In this document: one piece after another, positions 1,499 to 11,457 of the stretch
Layout of the letters: every line of letters begins with the position of its first letter
Numbering within the stretch: the stretch's first letter is position 1
Assembly (NCBI GenBank): GCA_038870455.1
Contig: JAWCPB010000001.1
Span: forward strand, 1-64,000
Direction: 5' to 3'
DNA: 64,000 bases
DNA from: Candidatus Micrarchaeia archaeon
GTDB lineage: Archaea; Micrarchaeota; Micrarchaeia; Burarchaeales; JACRGF01
Made by a program: the position numbers and the translations under genes
The notes under the pieces: generated by a model
The model's input: only the letters and a program-made list of their open reading frames with translations
Database searches by the model: none
What the model was told of the DNA's origin: nothing

Positions 1499-2677
1499 AT
1501 GTCTCTCTCGGTTGCCGACAAGGCGGAGTTTCGCGCGCTGCGGGTTGTTTCGGCTATACGCGGTTTTCGCAGGTTGTTTGAAAGCCGGCTCCTGCTTGAA
1601 GCCGAGAAGAAAATCGCAGACGGGCTTGACCGTTACTGGCGCGAGGCCGAGCGGATGGGCAGTGTCACCCCAATGGAGCTCGTCCGTTTTTTCAAGCGGG
1701 AATTCTCCGAAGCTAGGATGAATTACACGCCGTACCACAGCAGGCAAGTCGCCAAACTTGCGATTTTCATGACCCTCGAGCTCGGCCTGCCTCCCGAAGA
1801 AGTTTTTTTGCACGGGGCGGCTGGTTTCCTGCACGACATCGGAAAGCTTCTCATTCCCAAGGAAGTGCTGAAGAAAGAGCTGCTGCTTGGAAAGAGCCTG
1901 TCCAACGGGGAGAAGCGCTTTCTCCGCCAGCACGCGGAAAACGGCGAGCTCATGCTCTCGCGTTTTGACTGCGGTGAACTGCTGGTCATCAGGAGTGACA
2001 TCAGAAGCCACCACGAGCGGTTTGACGGTTTGACAACGGGTCCTTACGCGGGCTATCCCGACGGCCTGAAGGGCGAAGCCATCCCGTTCGGAGCCAGGCT
2101 CCTCAAGCTGCCTGATTCGCTGAGCGCCATGGTGTTCCACAGGTTTTACAGGAACAAGGTGTATTCCCTTGAGGACGCGGTCGCCGCCCTCGTGAAGCTT
2201 TCGGGAACCGAGTACGACCCGGGCATGGTCAGGACGCTCGTCAAAACAATGTACAGAATTCCCGGAGGAGAGCTGGACGAGTTCATGGGGGAGTTCGCTG
2301 GAAAGGAGTTCAGCTCGAGCATCTACGACGTGTTCATGGCCAACATCCGCGGGTTCCCCCGGCGCAGGCTCAAGAGCCTATTGAACGAGAACGGGCTCAA
2401 GTGCAGCCTCCTGCGCGCCAGAAGGGACGCCCTGCAGAACGCCTACCGCATCCGCGAGGCGGACATCATCGGTTTGCTGGAGGCTTACGGCATTGAATTC
2501 GATGGAGGAAGTATGGCTCGCTTCCAGAAATACATAAACCGCGACAACCGGCGCCTCCACGAGTGGGAGGAGAAAATCCTCTCGCCTGCCGCGGACCCGC
2601 TCATCCACAGGCTCTACGAGGAGCTGCAGCTCAGCGAAGTCGCGCTGGAGATGCCGGCTTTCACTTTCCTTTCTTGA
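1499..2677 (+). CDS. HD-GYP domain metal-dependent phosphohydrolase with C-terminal extension
   Basis: HS..VA, LHDIGK, HHERFDG, GYPDGLKGEAIP and SGTEYDP motifs. Confidence 0.8.
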   Translation: MSLSVADKAEFRALRVVSAIRGFRRLFESRLLLEAEKKIADGLDRYWREAERMGSVTPMELVRFFKREFSEARMNYTPYHSRQVAKLAIFMTLELGLPPEEVFLHGAAGFLHDIGKLLIPKEVLKKELLLGKSLSNGEKRFLRQHAENGELMLSRFDCGELLVIRSDIRSHHERFDGLTTGPYAGYPDGLKGEAIPFGARLLKLPDSLSAMVFHRFYRNKVYSLEDAVAALVKLSGTEYDPGMVRTLVKTMYRIPGGELDEFMGEFAGKEFSSSIYDVFMANIRGFPRRRLKSLLNENGLKCSLLRARRDALQNAYRIREADIIGLLEAYGIEFDGGSMARFQKYINRDNRRLHEWEEKILSPAADPLIHRLYEELQLSEVALEMPAFTFLS

Positions 2678-3659
2678 ACTCGAACATCCTCCTGATTTCC
2701 GCGCCGACTTTCTCGATGGGGTGCTCGCTTCCCTCCCTCCTCAGCTTCTCAAACACTTTCATGCCGCTCTCGTACTCGGCAATCCATTCTTTCGCAAACT
2801 GCCCGCTCTTTATCTCCTCGAGTATCCGCTTCATGTTCTCCTTGACGTGCGCGTCTATCACGCGGGGCCCTCGCGTGCGCCCGCCGTAGCGCGCGGTCTC
2901 GCTGACGCGGCTCCACATGTACTCCAGCCCGCCCTCGTTGATGAGGTCCGAGATGAGCTTGACCTCGTGCAGCACCTCGAAATAAGCCACTGCCGGCGGA
3001 AAGCCGTCATCCACGAGCGTCTCGTAGCCCGCCTTGATGAGCTCGGCCAGCCCACCGCATAGCACCGTCTGTTCGCCGAAAAGGTCCGAGTAAGTCTCCT
3101 GGTCGAAAGTCGCCTCGAACACGCCGGGCCTCGTGAAGCCCATCTGCTTGGCGAGCGCCAGCGCGATGTCCTTGGCCTTGCCGCTTGCGTTCTGGTGCAC
3201 CGCGAAAAGCGCGGGCGTGCCGAACCCCTGCAGGTAAGTTTCCCTCACTTTCTTGCCAGGCCCCTTGGGCGCCACCATGATGACATCAATGTCGCCGGGC
3301 GGCACTATCCTGCCGAAAGTTATGTTGAATCCGTGCGAGAAATACAGGACATCGCCTTTGCCCAAGTGCTTTTTCACAAACTTTTCGTAAATCCCCTTCT
3401 GCGTCATGTCAGGGGTGAGCATGAAAATGATGTCGCCTCTCCTCGCGGCCTCTTCAACGCCCGCTACTTCCATCCCGTCCTTTTTTGCTCTCTCCCAGCT
3501 CGCTCCACCCTGGCGCGCGCCAACGACAACCCTCTCGCCCGAGTCCCTCAAGTTCTGCGCCTGCGCAGCCCCTTGGATGCCGTAGCCTATGACCGCAATC
3601 GTTTTCCCCTTGAGCACCTTCTCATCAACGTCCTTGTCGTGGTATATCTTCATGGCCAT
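2661..3659 (-). CDS. ilvC: Ketol-acid reductoisomerase
   Basis: GYGIQG nucleotide-binding motif, MVAPKGPG, DLFGEQTVLCGG, SETARYG. Confidence 0.97.
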   Translation of the reverse strand: MAMKIYHDKDVDEKVLKGKTIAVIGYGIQGAAQAQNLRDSGERVVVGARQGGASWERAKKDGMEVAGVEEAARRGDIIFMLTPDMTQKGIYEKFVKKHLGKGDVLYFSHGFNITFGRIVPPGDIDVIMVAPKGPGKKVRETYLQGFGTPALFAVHQNASGKAKDIALALAKQMGFTRPGVFEATFDQETYSDLFGEQTVLCGGLAELIKAGYETLVDDGFPPAVAYFEVLHEVKLISDLINEGGLEYMWSRVSETARYGGRTRGPRVIDAHVKENMKRILEEIKSGQFAKEWIAEYESGMKVFEKLRREGSEHPIEKVGAEIRRMFEFKKGK

Positions 3660-3670
3660 ATCATTCCCCC

Positions 3671-4120
3671 CTACAATTTCCAGACAAACATTTTAATCTT
3701 CTCGTCAAGCCGCCTCCGAATTTCCCCAGTTTCCAGAATGAAGAACTCGCCCGTGAGCGAGACAACGCCCCTTGAAATGTGCGTCGCGAGAGTCCTCGCG
3801 CCCCGCCTCTGTCTTTTGTCGTTGTCCGCAAGCAGGCTGAGCGCCGCATGAAGATGCACGAAAGGCTTTCCCTCCTTCAGCGAAACGTTTCCGTGCGCGG
3901 CGAGCTCAACCGGCCCCCTGATGGTTTCGGTTTTTGGGTTGAGCCTTTCCGTGCTTGCGGCCGTGATGAGCTCGGCTTCCTTGAGCGCGCCGATTCCCCA
4001 AACCGCTCCGGAGCGGATGCCGTGCACGGCGCACGCCCGGGCGAGCCCTTCGACGAGCTCTTCCCCGGGCTCGAACCTGACGGCGATTAACCTGCCCGTC
4101 TTCAGCTTCCTTGACTCCAA
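3671..4120 (-). CDS. PPC/DUF296 domain protein
   Basis: RFEPGEEL, GIGAL, GNVS...PFVHLH and TGE motifs. Confidence 0.85.
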   Translation of the reverse strand: MESRKLKTGRLIAVRFEPGEELVEGLARACAVHGIRSGAVWGIGALKEAELITAASTERLNPKTETIRGPVELAAHGNVSLKEGKPFVHLHAALSLLADNDKRQRRGARTLATHISRGVVSLTGEFFILETGEIRRRLDEKIKMFVWKL

Positions 4121-4135
4121 GGGAAATCACTTCCT

Positions 4136-4645
4136 TCAATCGCGCGAAAGCGCGGTGATGCCCGTCCTCACCATCTCTTTTATGCCGAAGGGCCTGATGA
4201 GCTCGACGAACGCGTCTATCTTGTCAGCCGGGCCGGTCACCTCGACTATCATCGAGTTCGCGCCCACGTCGATGACCCTTCCCCTGAATATGCTGGTGAA
4301 GTTCATGAGCTCGTTTCTCGCGGCGAAGTCCTTCACGTGTATTTTCGCGAGCGCAATCTCCCTCGTCACGGCCTTCTCGGGCTCCATCTCAATGACTTTA
4401 ATCGTCTCCACGAGCTTGCTGAGCTGCTTGATTATCTGTTCGACAGTGTGGTCGTCTCCGGTCGTCGTTATCGTCATGCGCGAGAGGCCGGGCTTCTCCG
4501 TCTTTCCAACAGTTATCGTGTTCATGTTGAACCCTCTCCTGGAGAACACTCCGGAAATCCTCTGCAGCACGCCGAACTTGTCTTCCACGAGAAGCGACAG
4601 TATGTGCTCGTGCGGAGTTCCGTTTCCCTTCGCGTTGCCAGCCAT
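4136..4645 (-). CDS. ilvH: Acetolactate synthase small (regulatory) subunit
   Basis: ACT domain (LVEDKFGVLQRISGVFSRRGFN) and C-terminal EMVRTG; directly downstream of ilvB. Confidence 0.95.
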   Translation of the reverse strand: MAGNAKGNGTPHEHILSLLVEDKFGVLQRISGVFSRRGFNMNTITVGKTEKPGLSRMTITTTGDDHTVEQIIKQLSKLVETIKVIEMEPEKAVTREIALAKIHVKDFAARNELMNFTSIFRGRVIDVGANSMIVEVTGPADKIDAFVELIRPFGIKEMVRTGITALSRD

Positions 4646-4649
4646 CTGC

Positions 4650-6383
4650 TCACCCCGTCCCAAGCATTTTCTTTGACAGCGCATCCACCTTGCCGCACAG
4701 CGGGCTTGGAATCATGCGGTCGTTCCTGCCGCCTGCCGGCACCATGGGCAGCACATCAATCTCGGGGTCTATGACGATGTCAAGCGCGTATATGACGTCG
4801 CTCTCAAGGCCCCGCTTTATGGCTTCCTTGAGCTCGCTGGGCCTCTCCACCCTCTCCCCGTCCCCGCCGTAGCTCTGGAAGAGCTTTATGAAATCAGGAA
4901 GCGGGTGCAGTTTGGTGTGCGAGTACCTCTTTTCCATGAACAGCTTCTGCCACTGCTTAACCATTCCAAGCCATCCGTTGTTGAGTATGCAGATGACTGT
5001 CGGCAATCCGTAATGCACGCTGGTTGCAATCTCTTGGTTCGTCATCAGCACGCTCCCGTCTCCCGCGATGTCTATAACGTGCATATCCGGCCGCGCGGCC
5101 TTCACCCCGATGGAAGCGGGCAGGCCGAAGCCCATCGTGCCGAGGCCTCCGCTGGAAATGAAGCGCCTCGGCTCCCTCGCCTCCGTGAAGTGCATGGCCC
5201 ACATCTGGTTCTGCCCCACCTCAGTGACGAAAATCGTCTTTTCCCTGGGAGTGTGCAGGTTCAGCTCCTTGATCACTCTCGCAGGATGCAGCGGGGCATT
5301 CTCCAGCGCGCCGTAGTTGCAGTTGCAGGCTTCCTTGAGTTCCCTGCACCTCCTGCTCCACTCGCTTTCCTTCTTCCTGGTCTTTTCCAGTCCAGCGAGT
5401 ATTGCCGCGAGCGCCTTTTTCGCATCCGCCTGAATGGGCACATCGGGCCTCACGTTCTTTCCAATCTCGGCCGCGTCAATGTCGATATGAATTATTTTCG
5501 CGTGCGGGGCGAAGTGCTTGATGTCCGCAGTCACCCTATCGTCGAACCTGCACCCGACTGCCAGCACGACATCGGCTAGAGTGAGCGCGGTGTTCGCCCC
5601 AATCCTCCCATGCATTCCCACGGGCCCCAGGCACAGAGGGTGAGTGTCGTCCACCACTCCCTTGGCCATGAGCGTGTAGACAACGGGTGCAAACAGGATC
5701 TCGCTGAGCCTCGCCACTTCCTTGTGCGCGCCCGAGATGATGACTCCCCCTCCGGCAAGTATGACCGGCTTCTCTGCAGAAATCAGCACCTCCACCGCCT
5801 TCTTCACCTGAACAGGATGCGGCTCGTACTTCGGCTGGTAGCCCGGAATGGTGATGGTCTCTGGGTACTCGAACTCAATTTCTGCATTCTGAACGTCTTT
5901 AGGCAGGTCAATCGCCACCGGCCCCGGCCTTCCGGCTGTCGCTATGGTGAAGGCCATCTTCATTATTTTCGGCAGCTCCTCCGGATTCATGACCTTGAAG
6001 TTGTGCTTCGTGATGGGCATGGTTATCCCGAACACATCGGCTTCCTGGAACGCGTCGTTGCCGATCAGGCTTCGGATGACCTGTCCTGTCATGGCTACGA
6101 CCGGCACGCTATCCATGTACGCGTCCGCCAGGCCGGTAGTCAAATTCGTTGCGCCTGGCCCGCTTGTCGCCACGCACACCCCGACTTTTCCGCTAGCTCT
6201 TGCATAACCCTCTGCGGCATGCGCCGCCCCCTGCTCATGCCTCACGAGATAATGCGTGAGCTCCGGATAGTCGAGGAGCGCGTCGTAAAAAGGCATGATG
6301 GCTCCTCCCGGAAGCCCGAACATGTGCTTGACCTTTTCTCTCTTCAAGGCCTCGCAAATGGCCTTCGCTCCCTTCATCCTCAC
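4650..6383 (-). CDS. ilvB: Acetolactate synthase large subunit
   Basis: FGLPGGA, VRHEQGA, TSGPGATN, GLGTMGFG and TPP-binding GDGS...NN motifs. Confidence 0.97.
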   Translation of the reverse strand: MRMKGAKAICEALKREKVKHMFGLPGGAIMPFYDALLDYPELTHYLVRHEQGAAHAAEGYARASGKVGVCVATSGPGATNLTTGLADAYMDSVPVVAMTGQVIRSLIGNDAFQEADVFGITMPITKHNFKVMNPEELPKIMKMAFTIATAGRPGPVAIDLPKDVQNAEIEFEYPETITIPGYQPKYEPHPVQVKKAVEVLISAEKPVILAGGGVIISGAHKEVARLSEILFAPVVYTLMAKGVVDDTHPLCLGPVGMHGRIGANTALTLADVVLAVGCRFDDRVTADIKHFAPHAKIIHIDIDAAEIGKNVRPDVPIQADAKKALAAILAGLEKTRKKESEWSRRCRELKEACNCNYGALENAPLHPARVIKELNLHTPREKTIFVTEVGQNQMWAMHFTEAREPRRFISSGGLGTMGFGLPASIGVKAARPDMHVIDIAGDGSVLMTNQEIATSVHYGLPTVICILNNGWLGMVKQWQKLFMEKRYSHTKLHPLPDFIKLFQSYGGDGERVERPSELKEAIKRGLESDVIYALDIVIDPEIDVLPMVPAGGRNDRMIPSPLCGKVDALSKKMLGTG

Positions 6384-6445
6384 GGCTTACACCTCTCATG
6401 CAAGTTTTTTATCCTCTTTTGTCTGCTCATGTTTTTGCACCTCGC

Positions 6446-6475
6446 AGCTCAAGCCAGAATAGCGCGGCTTGAGCT
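6446..6475 (-). promoter_or_regulatory. 10-bp-stem hairpin in the ilvB leader
   Basis: Perfect inverted repeat AGCTCAAGCC (6446-6455) / GGCTTGAGCT (6466-6475) with a 10-nt loop, overlapping the leader peptide stop codon. Confidence 0.6.
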
Positions 6476-6540
6476 CACCTAAGAACGACTACGCTGACAA
6501 GAAGAGAAACAGCCCTTTGCTCCGCGTAGTCAAACAACAT
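6475..6540 (-). CDS. Putative ilv leader peptide, 21 aa: MLFDYAEQRAVSLLVSVVVLR
   Basis: ATG at 6540, TGA at 6475. 8 of the last 11 codons are Leu or Val. A TTTTTAAA TATA-like box lies ~30 nt upstream. Sits directly upstream of ilvB. Confidence 0.6.
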   Translation of the reverse strand: MLFDYAEQRAVSLLVSVVVLR

Positions 6541-6579
6541 GCTTACCCGCCAATATTGTGGCCAAACGAATTTAAAAAC

Positions 6580-7410
6580 CTAACGAGGCGCTCGCGCGAT
6601 AATGATACGCTCTTTTAAATCAACTTTCTTCCCAGCGAAATCAATCCACCTCACCGTTGCTTCCAAGGCGTCATTCGTTTCTTTTTTCACAAAAACGCGC
6701 GCGTCTATTCCTGCCTCCAAAGCCTCCAGCGCTTCCTTCCTCTCGTCATCCGAGATTTGCGTGACCAGCCACACGTTCCTCCCATCGTGCTCTAGCCTCC
6801 CCAGAACAGCTCGCTTGCCGCATTGGTAATCCACCAAATAAGTACCTCTGTACTCGACTTCGTCATCGTGATTTGCCACAACCCGAACTTCTGCGAGTAC
6901 CGGCGGAATGTCTTTGAGCTTTGTCAGCTCATCAAGTTTTTTCCCAAATCTAGTTTCAAGCAGTTCATCGATTTTATTCGCGTCCACGCCGGGTTTTCCG
7001 CAAATCTTTTCTAGCGACATTATCGCCGCGCGCCTGCAAACATACTGGCTGTCACCCTCCATCGCCTCCACCAGCACCAAAATCTCGTCCGCTCCGCCAA
7101 GCAGGCCCAGCGCCTCAAGGCAGTTGTGCCTCACAATCCAATCCGTATCGCTAATTGCCTTTTCCCCTAGTACCCCAAGAACATTCTTAGAAGAATAGCC
7201 AATTTCCCCAAGCATCATGGCCGCGAGGTCCCTGTTCTCATCCCCGCGCTTGAGCGCCTGCACGAGCTTTTCGATTTCCTCGGCGGCATTGCCTTCAAGC
7301 AGCCTGCGCTTGATTGCATCACGACGCGCTTTATAACCAGACAGCAACTTCTTTCTTTCAGGACTAGCTTCGGCGTAAAGATTCCGCCGGCTGCCTGCCA
7401 CTCTTCCCAT
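6580..7410 (-). CDS. HEAT-repeat (PBS lyase-like) protein
   Basis: Repeats RDLAAMMLGEIG, VRHNCLEALGLLG and CRRAAIMSLEKI. Start at 7410 or 7437. Confidence 0.65.
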   Translation of the reverse strand: MGRVAGSRRNLYAEASPERKKLLSGYKARRDAIKRRLLEGNAAEEIEKLVQALKRGDENRDLAAMMLGEIGYSSKNVLGVLGEKAISDTDWIVRHNCLEALGLLGGADEILVLVEAMEGDSQYVCRRAAIMSLEKICGKPGVDANKIDELLETRFGKKLDELTKLKDIPPVLAEVRVVANHDDEVEYRGTYLVDYQCGKRAVLGRLEHDGRNVWLVTQISDDERKEALEALEAGIDARVFVKKETNDALEATVRWIDFAGKKVDLKERIIIARAPR

Positions 7411-7779: not shown

Positions 7780-9078
7780 TCACCTCGGCTTGAGGCGGCC
7801 CCACTTGGCGAGCGCGCGAGCGAGCTCGGGATGCCTTTTTGCCTTTTCCTCAAGGCTCTCTCCTTCCATCACCGCCTCGATGGCTTGCCTGAGCGCCTTC
7901 GCGCCAGCGCGCGTGCCATCGGGGTGGCCGTGAATTCCTCCGCCTGCCTGAATGATTATGTCGCTTCCGAAAATTGACATCACGTCCGGCACAAGGCCCG
8001 GGTGCAGCCCTCCTGAAGAGACGGGAAACACGGGCTTGAGGCCGAACCAGTCCTGCGAGAGGTTGAGCGGGAGACTTTCATCCACCTTCTGCTTTGTAAT
8101 CACTTCCTGAATTCGCTTTACTTCCTCCCTCGTTCCCACGAGCTTTCCCACGGCTGTCCCTATGTGAAGCTGGTCGACTCCAACAAGCCTGAGGAGCTTT
8201 GCCAGGCAAAGCATGCTCACCCCGTGCTTCGGGTTTCTCGTGAAAGCCGCGTGCATGGCCCTGTGCGCGTGAATGGCCAGCCCATAATCCTGGCAGGCTT
8301 CGCGCGCTGTCTGGAGTCCGGCAAAGCCGGCCGTCACCACATCCACCATGGCGTATTCCCATCCCAAGTCATACAAGAGTTTTGCCCTCTTCAGCATTTC
8401 CTTTGTTTCCGCAGTGATGTTGAGGAGCGCGCTCTTTCGCTCTCCCGTCTCCCTCTCCGCCCTCGCCCTCATCTTCGCGCACAGCCTGACTCTCTCCTCG
8501 AACCGGTTGAACTCCAGCGAAGTCAGGTTTTCATCGTCCTTGACCAAGTCTATCCCGCCAGCCCAAGCCTCGTATGCAACCTCAGCGTGTTCTTTCGCCG
8601 AAAAGCCGACTTTAGGCTTTGGGACTGTCGCCGTAATGGATCTCTTCGGCTCCCTGAAAATCCTTCTTACTCCGGCTATGCCGAACTGCGGTCCTCTGAA
8701 GGCCCGCACATATTCTTTCGGCAGCGTGATGTCAATGAGCCTGAGATTGGCGAGCGCCTTCATCCCGAAAATGTTTCCGGCCACCCCGCTCAAGAGCTGC
8801 GGCGCGTTTCCTTTTTCCCAAAGCTCAAGCGGATAACACAGTTTCGCAAGGCTTCCCTTCACCTCGAAAGCCATGCCCTTGAGCCTCTTTATTCTGGGCG
8901 GCAGCCGCGCGAGCGTAGTCCAGGTCCCCACCGAGCTCTCGGAAGCCATCCTGCCGAGCGCCTCGTCGCGCGCGATGCCTTCGGCCGGCTCGAAGTAAAA
9001 GAGCGCAACTAGGTCGCTTTTCGCCGGCCTTTCCCCAAAATCAACGAATTCCTCGTACCACTCGATTTTTCCTGCCAC
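7780..9078 (-). CDS. rbcL: Ribulose-1,5-bisphosphate carboxylase large subunit, archaeal form III type
   Basis: ESSVGTWT, KPKVG, carbamylation motif DLVKDDEN, HAHRAMH, GKL, SGG and QAGGGIHGHP. All key catalytic residues are recognisable. Confidence 0.95.
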   Translation of the reverse strand: MAGKIEWYEEFVDFGERPAKSDLVALFYFEPAEGIARDEALGRMASESSVGTWTTLARLPPRIKRLKGMAFEVKGSLAKLCYPLELWEKGNAPQLLSGVAGNIFGMKALANLRLIDITLPKEYVRAFRGPQFGIAGVRRIFREPKRSITATVPKPKVGFSAKEHAEVAYEAWAGGIDLVKDDENLTSLEFNRFEERVRLCAKMRARAERETGERKSALLNITAETKEMLKRAKLLYDLGWEYAMVDVVTAGFAGLQTAREACQDYGLAIHAHRAMHAAFTRNPKHGVSMLCLAKLLRLVGVDQLHIGTAVGKLVGTREEVKRIQEVITKQKVDESLPLNLSQDWFGLKPVFPVSSGGLHPGLVPDVMSIFGSDIIIQAGGGIHGHPDGTRAGAKALRQAIEAVMEGESLEEKAKRHPELARALAKWGRLKPR

Positions 9079-9100: not shown

Positions 9101-9772
9101 TTAAAGGCTTTCTGTGGAGAGAAACCGGAGGATCTTTTTTCTTTCTCCCAAGCCCCTCACGAGCAGGTCCGCTCCCGCCCTCGCCAGCTTCACCCTCGGC
9201 TCAAATCCTGTGGCAACCCCGATCACACACATTCCTGCGTTTCTCGCCGCCTTTATCCCGATGGCTGAATCCTCAATCACAGTGCATGCGCTCGGCTTGG
9301 CACCGAGCCGCCTCGCAGTCCTCAGCAGGAGGTCTGGCGATGGCTTCGGCCTATCGCCGGCCTCTGTGGTGGTGACGGCGTCAAAGAACGCGGTGAGGCC
9401 ATAGTGTCTGAGGAAAGCCTTTACGAGCGCAAGCCGGTTTGATGTGGCCAGGCCTATGCGCATGCCTGTTTTTCTCAGCGCGCGTAAAAGCGGCCTTGCG
9501 CCCGGCGTGAGCTTGTTCCTGCCTGCCATGCGGGCTTGTATGAGCGTCTTTCTTTTTGCGATGCGCTCGATCACGCTCGCGCTTTTGTTCAGCCCCTTGT
9601 AGTCGAAGAATCGTTTTATGAGCAAAAAAGGACCTTGTCCCCAGAAACGCCTTATCTCGTCCTTCGTTATCGCATAGCCGGCCTCAGCGAGCGCCTGCTT
9701 GTATGCGGCAATCCCCGCCTCCCGCGTGTCGGCCAGCACGCCGTCAAAGTCGAAGATGACAGCCTTGGCCAC
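9101..9772 (-). CDS. HAD-superfamily phosphatase (beta-PGM/CbbY-like)
   Basis: DFDGVLADT motif I, ATS, KPSPD and IEDS..G. Confidence 0.88.
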   Translation of the reverse strand: MAKAVIFDFDGVLADTREAGIAAYKQALAEAGYAITKDEIRRFWGQGPFLLIKRFFDYKGLNKSASVIERIAKRKTLIQARMAGRNKLTPGARPLLRALRKTGMRIGLATSNRLALVKAFLRHYGLTAFFDAVTTTEAGDRPKPSPDLLLRTARRLGAKPSACTVIEDSAIGIKAARNAGMCVIGVATGFEPRVKLARAGADLLVRGLGERKKILRFLSTESL

Positions 9773-9783
9773 AAAACAGCCCC

Positions 9784-11457
9784 TCAGCCGCCCGTTTCTT
9801 CCACATAAATCGGCGTGCGCGTTAGGGTGAGCTTGGCCACGCGGAACTGCGTGGGAATCTCATAGCTCTCGTTGCCGAAGACGCTGCTCACGCGCAGGGC
9901 CGCGGAGTCGCTCGTGAAATTCACTCTCTTGGGCTCGCTGCTCCAGAAGACATACACGGGCGCGGGCTTGCCCGGCACAACAAACTTGTACGCGCGCACC
10001 CCAGGCCCGTAATCGGGCATTTCAATGGAGGTAAAGCGGTCAATCTGGCTTATCAGGAATTTGAGCGCATAGAAGGCGGGCCTCTTTCTACCGTCGTACC
10101 TGACGAGCGCGTAGGAATTCTCTTCTTCTGAAAGGGCGGGCCCTTCCTTTAGGCGCGCGTAGAAAATCTTCTGGGCCCCGTTGGCGAGCGCGAACACATA
10201 ACTCCTGACGAGCACCGCGGCCTGCTCCTCCTCGCTCAGGCTCTCCACGCCAGCCCCATACCGGTCGTGAGTGAAATTGCCTGTCGGATAGGCGACTTCG
10301 GTCAGCCAGACCGTCTTGTCAAGGTTGTTCCTGGCAAGAACGTTCTTGAACGCGAGCAGATTCACGCCCTCACCGGCGTTGTTGGCGTGCAGCGAGGCGA
10401 TGTAGAAGAAGTCTTTTGCACCGTACTGAAGCGTGTATTCAAAGAAATTGATTGTCGGAACATCCAGATCGGGCAGCCCGCCGTAGAGAACCTCGCAGTC
10501 CGGGCACGCGGCCTTCACAGCAGAGTAGGTGGCCCTGAGCAGGCTCGCGTACTCGAACGATGTCCCCTTGAAGTAAGGCGTGTTCCCGCTTCCAAGCGAC
10601 GGCCTGTCCATCACTTCCCAGTGCTTGATGGGCTGGCGAAGGCCGGGCATGTCCTCCACGCCGTCTCCATCGTACCTCTCCACGAGCGCTCTGGCAAACT
10701 TTTCATACCTCTGGATGTTGCACGGCGCGCACCTGAACAGCGACAGCGAGCCGATTCCCTGGAACCTGCACTCGTTTCCATGGCAGGACAGCTGGTCCCA
10801 GTTGTTGAAAGGCCAGATTATGGCCTGTATGGATAGGTTGTTGGCCTGCGAGCGGGCAACATACGCGTCGGTGAGGTTGAAGTCATAGCTTCCGTTGTTC
10901 GCTTCGACGATGTTCCAGTCAAACGGCCCTGTCACGGGCCTGTTCCATCCCACTCCCAGCTCTGCGGCCGCGGAATAGTCGTTGTCGGCACCCACCACCC
11001 CAAAGTACGAAGAGGAAGAAGGTGGGGGCGGGCTGACAGTGATGTTAGTGACGTTCTGAGTTGCGTTAGCAGGCGCGGCGCAGTCGGCAGGGCACGCGCT
11101 CGCGTCCTCGCCAGCCTCGCATGCACCGTTTCCGCAGCAGCCGCTTCGCGTCTTCACCTCGCACGCGCCGGCTTCGCAGGTCTTGTACTGGCATGCGGTG
11201 ATGTTGCCCGAGCAGCCCGCCTGCTCCCCGCTCAAGGGAGTGTGCGCGCAGGAGTAGTTGGTCTGCGCCGAGCAGTAGTCGCTCGTGCACGGGTTTGCGT
11301 CATCGCACGAGGGAGGGCACATTCTTGAAGGGGGCACGGGACACTGTGAGGCGTTTTCCACCAGCGTGCCGTCCGGGCACTGGAACTTAGGGGGAGCAAG
11401 GCAGCCCAGCAGAAACAGGGAAAATGCTGCCAACGCGATTAACGCAAGCCTCTTCAT
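9784..11457 (-). CDS. Secreted lipoprotein: Cys-rich N-terminus plus GH-A clan (GH39/GH5-like) TIM-barrel domain
   Basis: Lipobox LLGC, Cys-rich repeats (CDDANPCTSDYC, CCGNGACE), a Pro/Ser linker, then RYDGDG, WEV and WLTE motifs. Confidence 0.7.
   Translation of the reverse strand: MKRLALIALAAFSLFLLGCLAPPKFQCPDGTLVENASQCPVPPSRMCPPSCDDANPCTSDYCSAQTNYSCAHTPLSGEQAGCSGNITACQYKTCEAGACEVKTRSGCCGNGACEAGEDASACPADCAAPANATQNVTNITVSPPPPSSSSYFGVVGADNDYSAAAELGVGWNRPVTGPFDWNIVEANNGSYDFNLTDAYVARSQANNLSIQAIIWPFNNWDQLSCHGNECRFQGIGSLSLFRCAPCNIQRYEKFARALVERYDGDGVEDMPGLRQPIKHWEVMDRPSLGSGNTPYFKGTSFEYASLLRATYSAVKAACPDCEVLYGGLPDLDVPTINFFEYTLQYGAKDFFYIASLHANNAGEGVNLLAFKNVLARNNLDKTVWLTEVAYPTGNFTHDRYGAGVESLSEEEQAAVLVRSYVFALANGAQKIFYARLKEGPALSEEENSYALVRYDGRKRPAFYALKFLISQIDRFTSIEMPDYGPGVRAYKFVVPGKPAPVYVFWSSEPKRVNFTSDSAALRVSSVFGNESYEIPTQFRVAKLTLTRTPIYVEETGG

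Follow-up and report, generated by a model that had tools for sequence, protein, structure and literature searches.

We followed up a candidate regulatory leader ahead of ilvB, the gene for the acetolactate synthase large subunit, in a 64,000-nucleotide (nt) stretch of archaeal DNA (contig JAWCPB010000001.1), referred to here as the window. The host is an uncultured hot-spring member of the Micrarchaeia (DPANN) with a genome of 1.04 Mb in 51 contigs (90% complete, 60% G+C). On the minus strand, ilvB heads an operon that continues with ilvN and ilvC (Table 1). The gene is opened by GTG (6383-6381) and is 577 codons long, and this start agrees with the shape of the N terminus in relatives, lying two codons ahead of a conserved Met. 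The DNA before ilvB holds a promoter block with a TATA-like box, a short upstream open reading frame (uORF1) with an 8-bp stem inside it, a hairpin that begins at the uORF1 stop codon, a Shine-Dalgarno (SD) box, and a second upstream frame (uORF2) that runs into ilvB. The TATA-like box, both frames, the stem, the hairpin, and the SD box were all found where the first-pass annotation of this DNA had placed them.

The leader region of the ilvB operon

The last 12 codons of uORF1 (codons 10-21, 6513-6478) form a Leu/Val run in which eight residues are Leu, Val, or Ile, the products that need ilvBNC. Such endings are scarce in the genome. Of 30,814 stop-to-stop frames with 12 or more codons, ten carry at least eight Leu, Val, or Ile in their last 12 residues, and the fold that follows the stop is more stable for the uORF1 frame (-19.3 kcal/mol) than for any other of the ten. 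Codon choice in the run is mildly biased, with three CTT codons (18% of Leu codons) and avoidance of GTG (39% of Val codons), and we attach little weight to it. No such leader stands upstream of either copy of leuA or of ilvD in the host genome, and its thrS has no Thr-rich leader.

The first paired base of the hairpin is the A of the uORF1 TGA. The sister species (genome G001) retains both arms, a single C-to-U change still allowing pairing, and its loop differs at several positions. The folding energy is not rare by itself, being matched by 47 of 1,297 gene ends and 224 of 3,000 random 50-mers, and the whole 181-nt leader folds no better than its shuffles (z = -0.43; 62 of 200 shuffles were at least as stable). 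The case therefore rests on comparison with relatives, and by that comparison what goes beyond chance is a layout that recurs with different sequences.

The first-pass annotation had remarked that no U-tract follows the hairpin, and this was borne out: GC and then GAGGTG come next, and a scan for sigma-70 promoters and terminators placed no terminator there. A route other than classic intrinsic termination, as it had suggested, is thus reasonable. A covariance search of positions 5800-7200 against Rfam (cmscan, E up to 10) returned only a chance microRNA match inside ilvB and no leader RNA family, the Leu, Thr, His, and Trp leaders included. The 8-bp stem that had been described over the Ser-Val-Val codons is present and perfect in the window but is not kept in the sister species, where the same positions would give six G-U pairs, one G-C pair, and one mismatch, and where the predicted fold lacks it. 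The stem is probably not an essential part of the element, judging from this pair of sequences.

The TATA-like octamer TTTTTAAA occurs 60 times in the genome; 26 copies are no more than 200 nt upstream of a long ORF, and 11 of those 26 end 20-29 nt before the start codon, the distance expected for leaderless messages. Ahead of uORF1 the box ends 31 nt before the ATG, a spacing from which transcription is predicted to start near 6548-6544, a few bases upstream of 6540. The first-pass annotation had named a start downstream of 6540 as damaging to its proposal; the promoter geometry lends that position no support. The promoter block is kept in the sister species despite different upstream genes.

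Both of the downstream starts in the window, those of uORF2 and ilvB, have canonical GAGGTG boxes. The box of ilvB (6395-6390) lies inside uORF2, as does a predicted 7-bp hairpin (6404-6386). The earlier description of uORF2, with its GAGGTG box and a TGA that overlaps the ilvB GTG, holds for the window, but among the Micrarchaeia ilvB loci compared uORF2 is limited to the window's genus. The GTGA overlap and the SD boxes fit translational coupling, one of the two routes that had been put forward. The CCGTGAGG stop/start junction is also found between an Lrp/AsnC-type regulator gene and thrS (genome G000, contig C32, ~10800-11300, minus strand; locus L190), where the regulator stop overlaps the thrS GTG. 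Since it joins an ordinary gene pair there, it is a normal coupling signal in this genome.

Table 1. Features of the ilvB locus in the window, and genomes grouped by the state of the leader upstream of ilvB
Feature	Position or genomes	Strand	Details
Conserved promoter block	6563..6591	minus	TATA-like box at 6578-6571; 28 of 29 positions as in G001
Leader ORF (uORF1)	6475..6540	minus	21 codons and TGA (6477-6475)
8-bp stem inside uORF1	6487..6531	minus	6531-6524 with 6494-6487; perfect in the window; 3' arm over codons 16-18 (Ser-Val-Val)
Stop-codon hairpin	6446..6475	minus	10 perfect pairs (6475-6466 with 6455-6446) and one inner G-U; loop of 8-10 nt
SD box of uORF2, GAGGTG	6438..6443	minus	2 nt past the hairpin, 7 nt before the ATG; conserved in G001
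uORF2	6380..6430	minus	16 codons and TGA (6382-6380) overlapping the ilvB GTG (GTGA)
ilvB, acetolactate synthase large subunit	4650..6383	minus	TIGR00118, 777 bits against a cut-off of 538
Rest of operon	2661..4684	minus	ilvN 4684-4136, PCC-domain ORF 4120-3671, ilvC 3659-2661
Clear leader (9)	G000, G001, G002, G010, G006, G004, G210, G358, G201	ilvB strand	ORF of 21-53 codons; Leu, Val, or Ile at 7-11 of the last 12
Weaker leader (2)	G054, G189	ilvB strand	weaker forms of the same layout
No leader (6)	G384, G093, G327, G079, G065, G354		in G093 ilvB follows a leuA-like gene

Recurrence of the leader layout in the Micrarchaeia

ilvB is carried by 7 of the 29 genomes of the order and, in the class as a whole, by 19 of the 401 that were sampled. 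Truncation at the 5' end affects two of these loci (G005 and G177); the other 17 have readable upstream DNA, in which ORFs were detected by rule. Leu/Val/Ile-rich upstream frames, which the first-pass annotation had proposed to look for in related archaea, were present: the leader layout is clear in nine of the 17 loci, weaker in two, and missing from six. In the ten relatives that have it, 7 to 11 of the final 12 codons specify Leu, Val, or Ile.

The geometry of the hairpin is shared among these loci and its sequence is not. Pairing starts 1-5 nt away from the first stop-codon base in 10 of the 11 leader loci; in the eleventh (L178) the outer stem begins at +5, in a longer fold only. When each locus was compared with 500 dinucleotide shuffles, the numbers folding at least as well were 28, 2, 5, 3, 0, 2, 39, 1, 0, 32, and 236. 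The hairpin sequences are unrelated from locus to locus, and the arms in L005 are those of the window in swapped order, so that the structure is kept while the sequence of each strand changes. A TATA-like A/T-rich element was seen by eye 18-60 nt upstream of each leader ORF. The genes further upstream all differ (a HEAT-repeat protein, an HxlR regulator, a peptidase U32, an IF-2B family protein, an OMP decarboxylase, and unknowns), from which we conclude that the leader element travels with ilvB. In L004 (G010, 970-1293), the gene directly upstream of the leader ORF and on the same strand encodes an HxlR-family winged-helix regulator.

Four loci (those of the window, G001, L004, and L005) have an SD box 0-2 nt past the end of the hairpin; the box belongs to ilvB itself in L004 and L005 and to uORF2 in the window and G001. 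In L004 and L005, GGGTGAT and the ilvB ATG come directly after the hairpin, with no room for a second promoter. With the hairpin abutting the SD box in these four loci, ilvB would be cotranscribed with the leader, and control, if any, would act on translation or stability. The helix of L004 extends further, and the last leader codons pair there with part of the ilvB ribosome-binding site.

A quick ilvB tree placed all 11 leader loci in one clade of 13 rows (Shimodaira-Hasegawa-like approximate likelihood-ratio test support, 84), sister to Methanomassiliicoccales, which fits a single origin followed by losses. None of 70 ilvB loci of Methanomassiliicoccales and allies had more than six Leu, Val, or Ile in the last 10 residues of an upstream frame, and a 7-of-8 screen of the same loci gave six matches, all within long upstream frames. 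A metagenomic ilvB scan yielded 80 listed loci, all at no more than 57% identity, of which 75 (45-57%) were used as controls; two of the 75 passed the strict screen. There were no further Micrarchaeia leaders among the matches listed. A relaxed screen brought up one further metagenomic locus, L151, which has its run at the very end of the ORF, followed by a hairpin of -24.5 kcal/mol, and resembles an actinobacterial-type leader. L151 and L154 are GC-rich ilvB loci, both with apparent actinobacterial-type Leu/Val leaders.

From 6430 to 6373, 58 consecutive positions that cover uORF2 and the SD box and start of ilvB are identical between the window and G001, whereas about 22-24% of positions differ in the leader ORF and in the first codons of ilvB. 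The need to encode a 16-residue peptide is no explanation for this identity, and the block is genus-specific and unexplained. We considered that the hairpin and the 58-nt block could be sites for a protein or RNA regulator, such as an Lrp-type protein on the DNA or an RNA-binding protein, with the two ORFs incidental. Identity beyond what the coding accounts for would be expected of such sites, and an A-rich element at 6412-6405 lies, by eye, at TATA distance from the ilvB GTG. However, the block is confined to the genus, whereas the leader and its hairpin are found across the class; well-spaced GAGGTG boxes at both downstream starts would be needless for a leaderless transcript from an internal promoter; and the codon composition of uORF1 would go unexplained. 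We therefore regard regulator sites with incidental ORFs as quite improbable.

Codon content of the leader and what it could encode

The pooled leader tails, with the window and G001 counted once, comprise 148 residues. Leu, Val, and Ile make up 74% of them, there is no Phe, Met, Trp, Tyr, or Cys, and the remaining residues are Ala, Ser, Thr, Gly, Pro, and Arg. Hydrophobic 15-mers from the long ORFs of the genome (n = 363) have a different makeup: 13.9% of their residues are Phe, Met, Trp, Tyr, or Cys, and 12 of 15 Leu, Val, or Ile is reached by one of the 363. The lack of Phe and Met in the tails is not a matter of nucleotide bias, since their codons also have U in the second position. By composition, then, the tails are under selection for amino acid identity and not for a U-rich RNA.

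The window and its sister point the same way. Their ilvB genes are 93% identical, and 16 of the 66 nt of uORF1 differ. Within the 12-codon run there are five synonymous and zero nonsynonymous changes, and four of the first nine residues differ. Across loci, the position of the stop relative to the hairpin is kept while the rest of the leader drifts. The tail composition, the substitution pattern, and the kept stop position argue that the leader run is read as codons.

The main rival, and a serious one, is that the peptide itself is the product. uORF1 would encode a tail-anchored, single-pass membrane peptide beside ilvB, and the hairpin would be a transcript end or stabilizer, with no sensing. 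The hydrophobic tail is 18-26 residues long in six of the nine clear loci, which is enough for a membrane; the longer forms have a basic N-terminal motif with Phe and Tyr in common; each ORF has, by eye, its own TATA-like box; and four relatives have a T-rich run and a long spacer after the hairpin. Taking about 18 or more residues as the requirement for a membrane span, however, the stretch of 11-12 residues in the window and G001, that of 14 in L003, and the Asp-interrupted one in L182 cannot span a membrane. The lack of Phe, Met, Trp, Tyr, and Cys in the tails and a length that ranges from 21 to 53 residues also speak against it, as do the kept stop-in-hairpin geometry and, in L004 and L005, a hairpin that abuts the ilvB ribosome-binding site. 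Bacterial ilv leader peptides are equally membrane-like as a by-product of their codons, a further point against this rival.

The distribution of the peptide bears on the same question. A peptide profile run over the 401 genomes found only six ilvB-linked long forms at E ≤ 1e-13, and the next match (9.4e-5) was the start of a 99-residue multi-pass membrane ORF. The peptide was thus never met away from ilvB, in a search that missed the short leader forms and whose sensitivity is limited accordingly. Taken together, we consider a membrane peptide unlikely, and the most plausible of the alternatives.

A further possibility is that uORF1 is translated without sensing anything, either as a constitutive device for 5' loading of ribosomes or coupling, or as a relic of an attenuator. 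A precedent is the similar ilvB leader of Streptomyces coelicolor, in which altering the codons suspected of regulation reportedly had no effect (PMC1262725). The search for alternative structures, described below, came up empty, and CCGTGAGG also serves as the stop/start overlap of the ordinary Lrp-thrS pair. A loading device or relic has no need, though, for a tail made of the pathway's three products that is kept across families while the rest of the ORF changes, nor for five synonymous and zero nonsynonymous changes in the run. Translation without sensing seems to us slightly less plausible still than a membrane peptide.

A ribosome-read leader and its relation to known systems

We favor the reading that uORF1 is a Leu/Val/Ile leader that is read by ribosomes and reports the supply of charged tRNA to the ilvB-ilvN-ilvC operon, and we put its probability at about 60%. 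The analysis establishes how the locus is built, that this build is conserved and accompanies ilvB exclusively, and that the codons are selected for their meaning; that uORF1 is translated and senses, with which polarity, and the relay through uORF2 are inferred. The first-pass annotation had proposed branched-chain amino acid sensing by ribosome stalling on a leader; the anatomy and conservation of the locus agree with that proposal, but the internal stem is not conserved in the sister species and no conserved pair of alternative structures was found. In the scheme we envisage, transcription would start from the TATA box of the leader itself, a few bases upstream of uORF1. The dwell time of ribosomes on the last Leu/Val codons would decide whether the stop-codon hairpin and the surrounding pairings fold, given that the stop codon supplies the first pair of the hairpin. 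In the window the output would most likely be translational, with the hairpin abutting the SD box of uORF2. Translation of uORF2 would in turn open the predicted 7-bp hairpin that contains the ilvB SD box and hand ribosomes over to the overlapping GTG. In the favored polarity, scarcity of charged Leu, Val, and Ile tRNAs would cause slow ribosomes to queue in the run, the final codons of which are close enough to reach the hairpin; this would keep the structure open, raise initiation at the adjacent SD box, and increase ilvB translation. Factor-dependent termination, the other route offered by the first-pass annotation, would by our reasoning give the wrong polarity.

A partition-function model was in line with this polarity at 37°C. 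With a ribosome placed on the last codons of the run, the probability that the ilvB GUG is unpaired rose from 0.44 to 0.69-0.82, and that of the next AUG rose from 0.34 to 0.90-0.92. The modeled accessibility and the extended helix of L004 give weak backing to the favored polarity. As for the more specific scheme, in which a near-leaderless mini-ORF with its stop locked in a hairpin gates ilvBNC translation without a terminator, through a relay of two ORFs and with the ribosome as the Leu/Val/Ile gauge, we would give it an even chance.

Several observations weigh against a ribosome-read gauge, or against the polarity that we favor. In the model, little of the gain in accessibility is left at 65°C, and the uORF2 box and AUG, with the box placed 2 nt off, gave no consistent response. 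A ribosome on the stop codon fully opens the hairpin, so that plenty might be the state that opens the structure. Constrained folding of nine loci with a ribosome placed on the stop codon or within the run, in which the classical 1:2, 2:3, and 3:4 pairings were looked for, gave no recurring alternative helix; the first-pass annotation had proposed folding alternative structures, and no conserved pair of mutually exclusive structures emerged. The swapped arms of L005 argue against a fixed third pairing partner. Duplexes between the run and the ribosome-binding region reach -12 to -32 kcal/mol, and shuffles do as well in most loci (207 of 300 for the window), with only L004 marginal, at 26 and 12 of 300. 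The candidate in which the codon run pairs with the ribosome-binding region and is clamped by the hairpin was rejected, the shuffles showing no support beyond base composition.

The leaders themselves supply further contrary points. The longer ones (L005, L006, L178, and L180) share an N-terminal Lys/Glu-Lys-Phe-x-Tyr motif, and the short leader of the window keeps Phe-x-Tyr; a pure codon gauge does not need this Phe/Tyr motif, which is unexplained. The T-rich run seen by eye after the hairpin in L003, L006, L178, and L180 is followed by 90-360 nt of spacer, which may hold a separate ilvB promoter, with the small ORF as its own transcription unit, or transcription may terminate there. The reportedly unresponsive leader of S. 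coelicolor (PMC1262725) likewise counts on this side. Finally, the public runs that contain this stretch are four DNA runs of hot-spring metagenomes from one study, with no RNA run among them. TTCGAA palindromes recur in the 229-nt spacer between the hairpin and ilvB in L003 (G002), as does a motif of ~15 nt (GAATTGTTGGG-like; two copies); these might serve as regulator sites or as a second promoter.

Attenuation by leader peptides is a textbook device of bacteria that relies on the coupling of transcription to translation and on terminators formed by hairpins. The two processes are coupled in archaea too, but to our knowledge archaea do not use hairpin terminators. The enterobacterial attenuators ivbL-ilvBN, ilvL-ilvGMEDA, and leuL have at the 5' end a mini-ORF rich in codons for the pathway products, with ribosome position as the signal. 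The leader of the window is likewise a mini-ORF rich in product codons, and its position at the 5' end of the message is predicted from the promoter. The enterobacterial systems need a Rho-independent terminator and an antiterminator, neither of which was seen in the window. In ermC, a ribosome stalled on a leader brings about translational attenuation, with output on translation and not on termination, and the polarity that we favor follows the same logic.

As in the window, the ilvB leaders of Corynebacterium, Mycobacterium, and Streptomyces consist of a short ORF before ilvB(N)C with an Ile/Val/Leu run that reaches or overlaps a hairpin (PMC1262725). Their hairpins are terminators with poly-U, whereas the hairpin of the window has no U-tract, and the ilvBNC attenuator of C. 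glutamicum has three alternating hairpins (PMC11857589), whereas no alternative hairpins were found here. The window differs as well in its archaeal host and TATA-box promoter, and the likeness drawn is one of layout. The favored analogy is with the poly-Cys leaderless ORFs of mycobacteria, where ribosomes that stall keep RNA structure from covering the ribosome-binding site that comes next, and the output acts on translation and not on termination (bioRxiv 10.1101/834739). The hiding duplex is a defined one there and was proven by mutations. The window differs from poly-Cys and ermC in that its SD box is just outside the hairpin, a hiding duplex is weakly suggested, and a second ORF is added as a relay.

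We found no description of an amino-acid-sensing leader peptide in any archaeon in a full-text literature search that covered few subscription journals and therefore leaves absence unproven. Were the ribosome-read leader correct, a conserved, operon-specific, product-matched leader in the DPANN would bring ribosome-based metabolite sensing into the archaeal domain, and some reduced DPANN symbionts would not only synthesize branched-chain amino acids but also control that synthesis themselves. The element is compact (about 170 nt) and could be transferred to a model archaeon or to a cell-free system for study of how it acts without a terminator.

The wider locus holds some additional genes. The PCC-domain (PF03479) ORF between ilvN and ilvC (3671-4120, minus strand) encodes 149 residues. 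The ilv locus is preceded on its upstream side by a HEAT-repeat ORF and then a type III RuBisCO gene (TIGR03326, 602 bits; 7780-9078), with a gene for a HAD-family phosphatase at 9101-9772, the latter two both on the minus strand. RuBisCO is also near the ilv locus in the sister species G001, but with a different intervening ORF.

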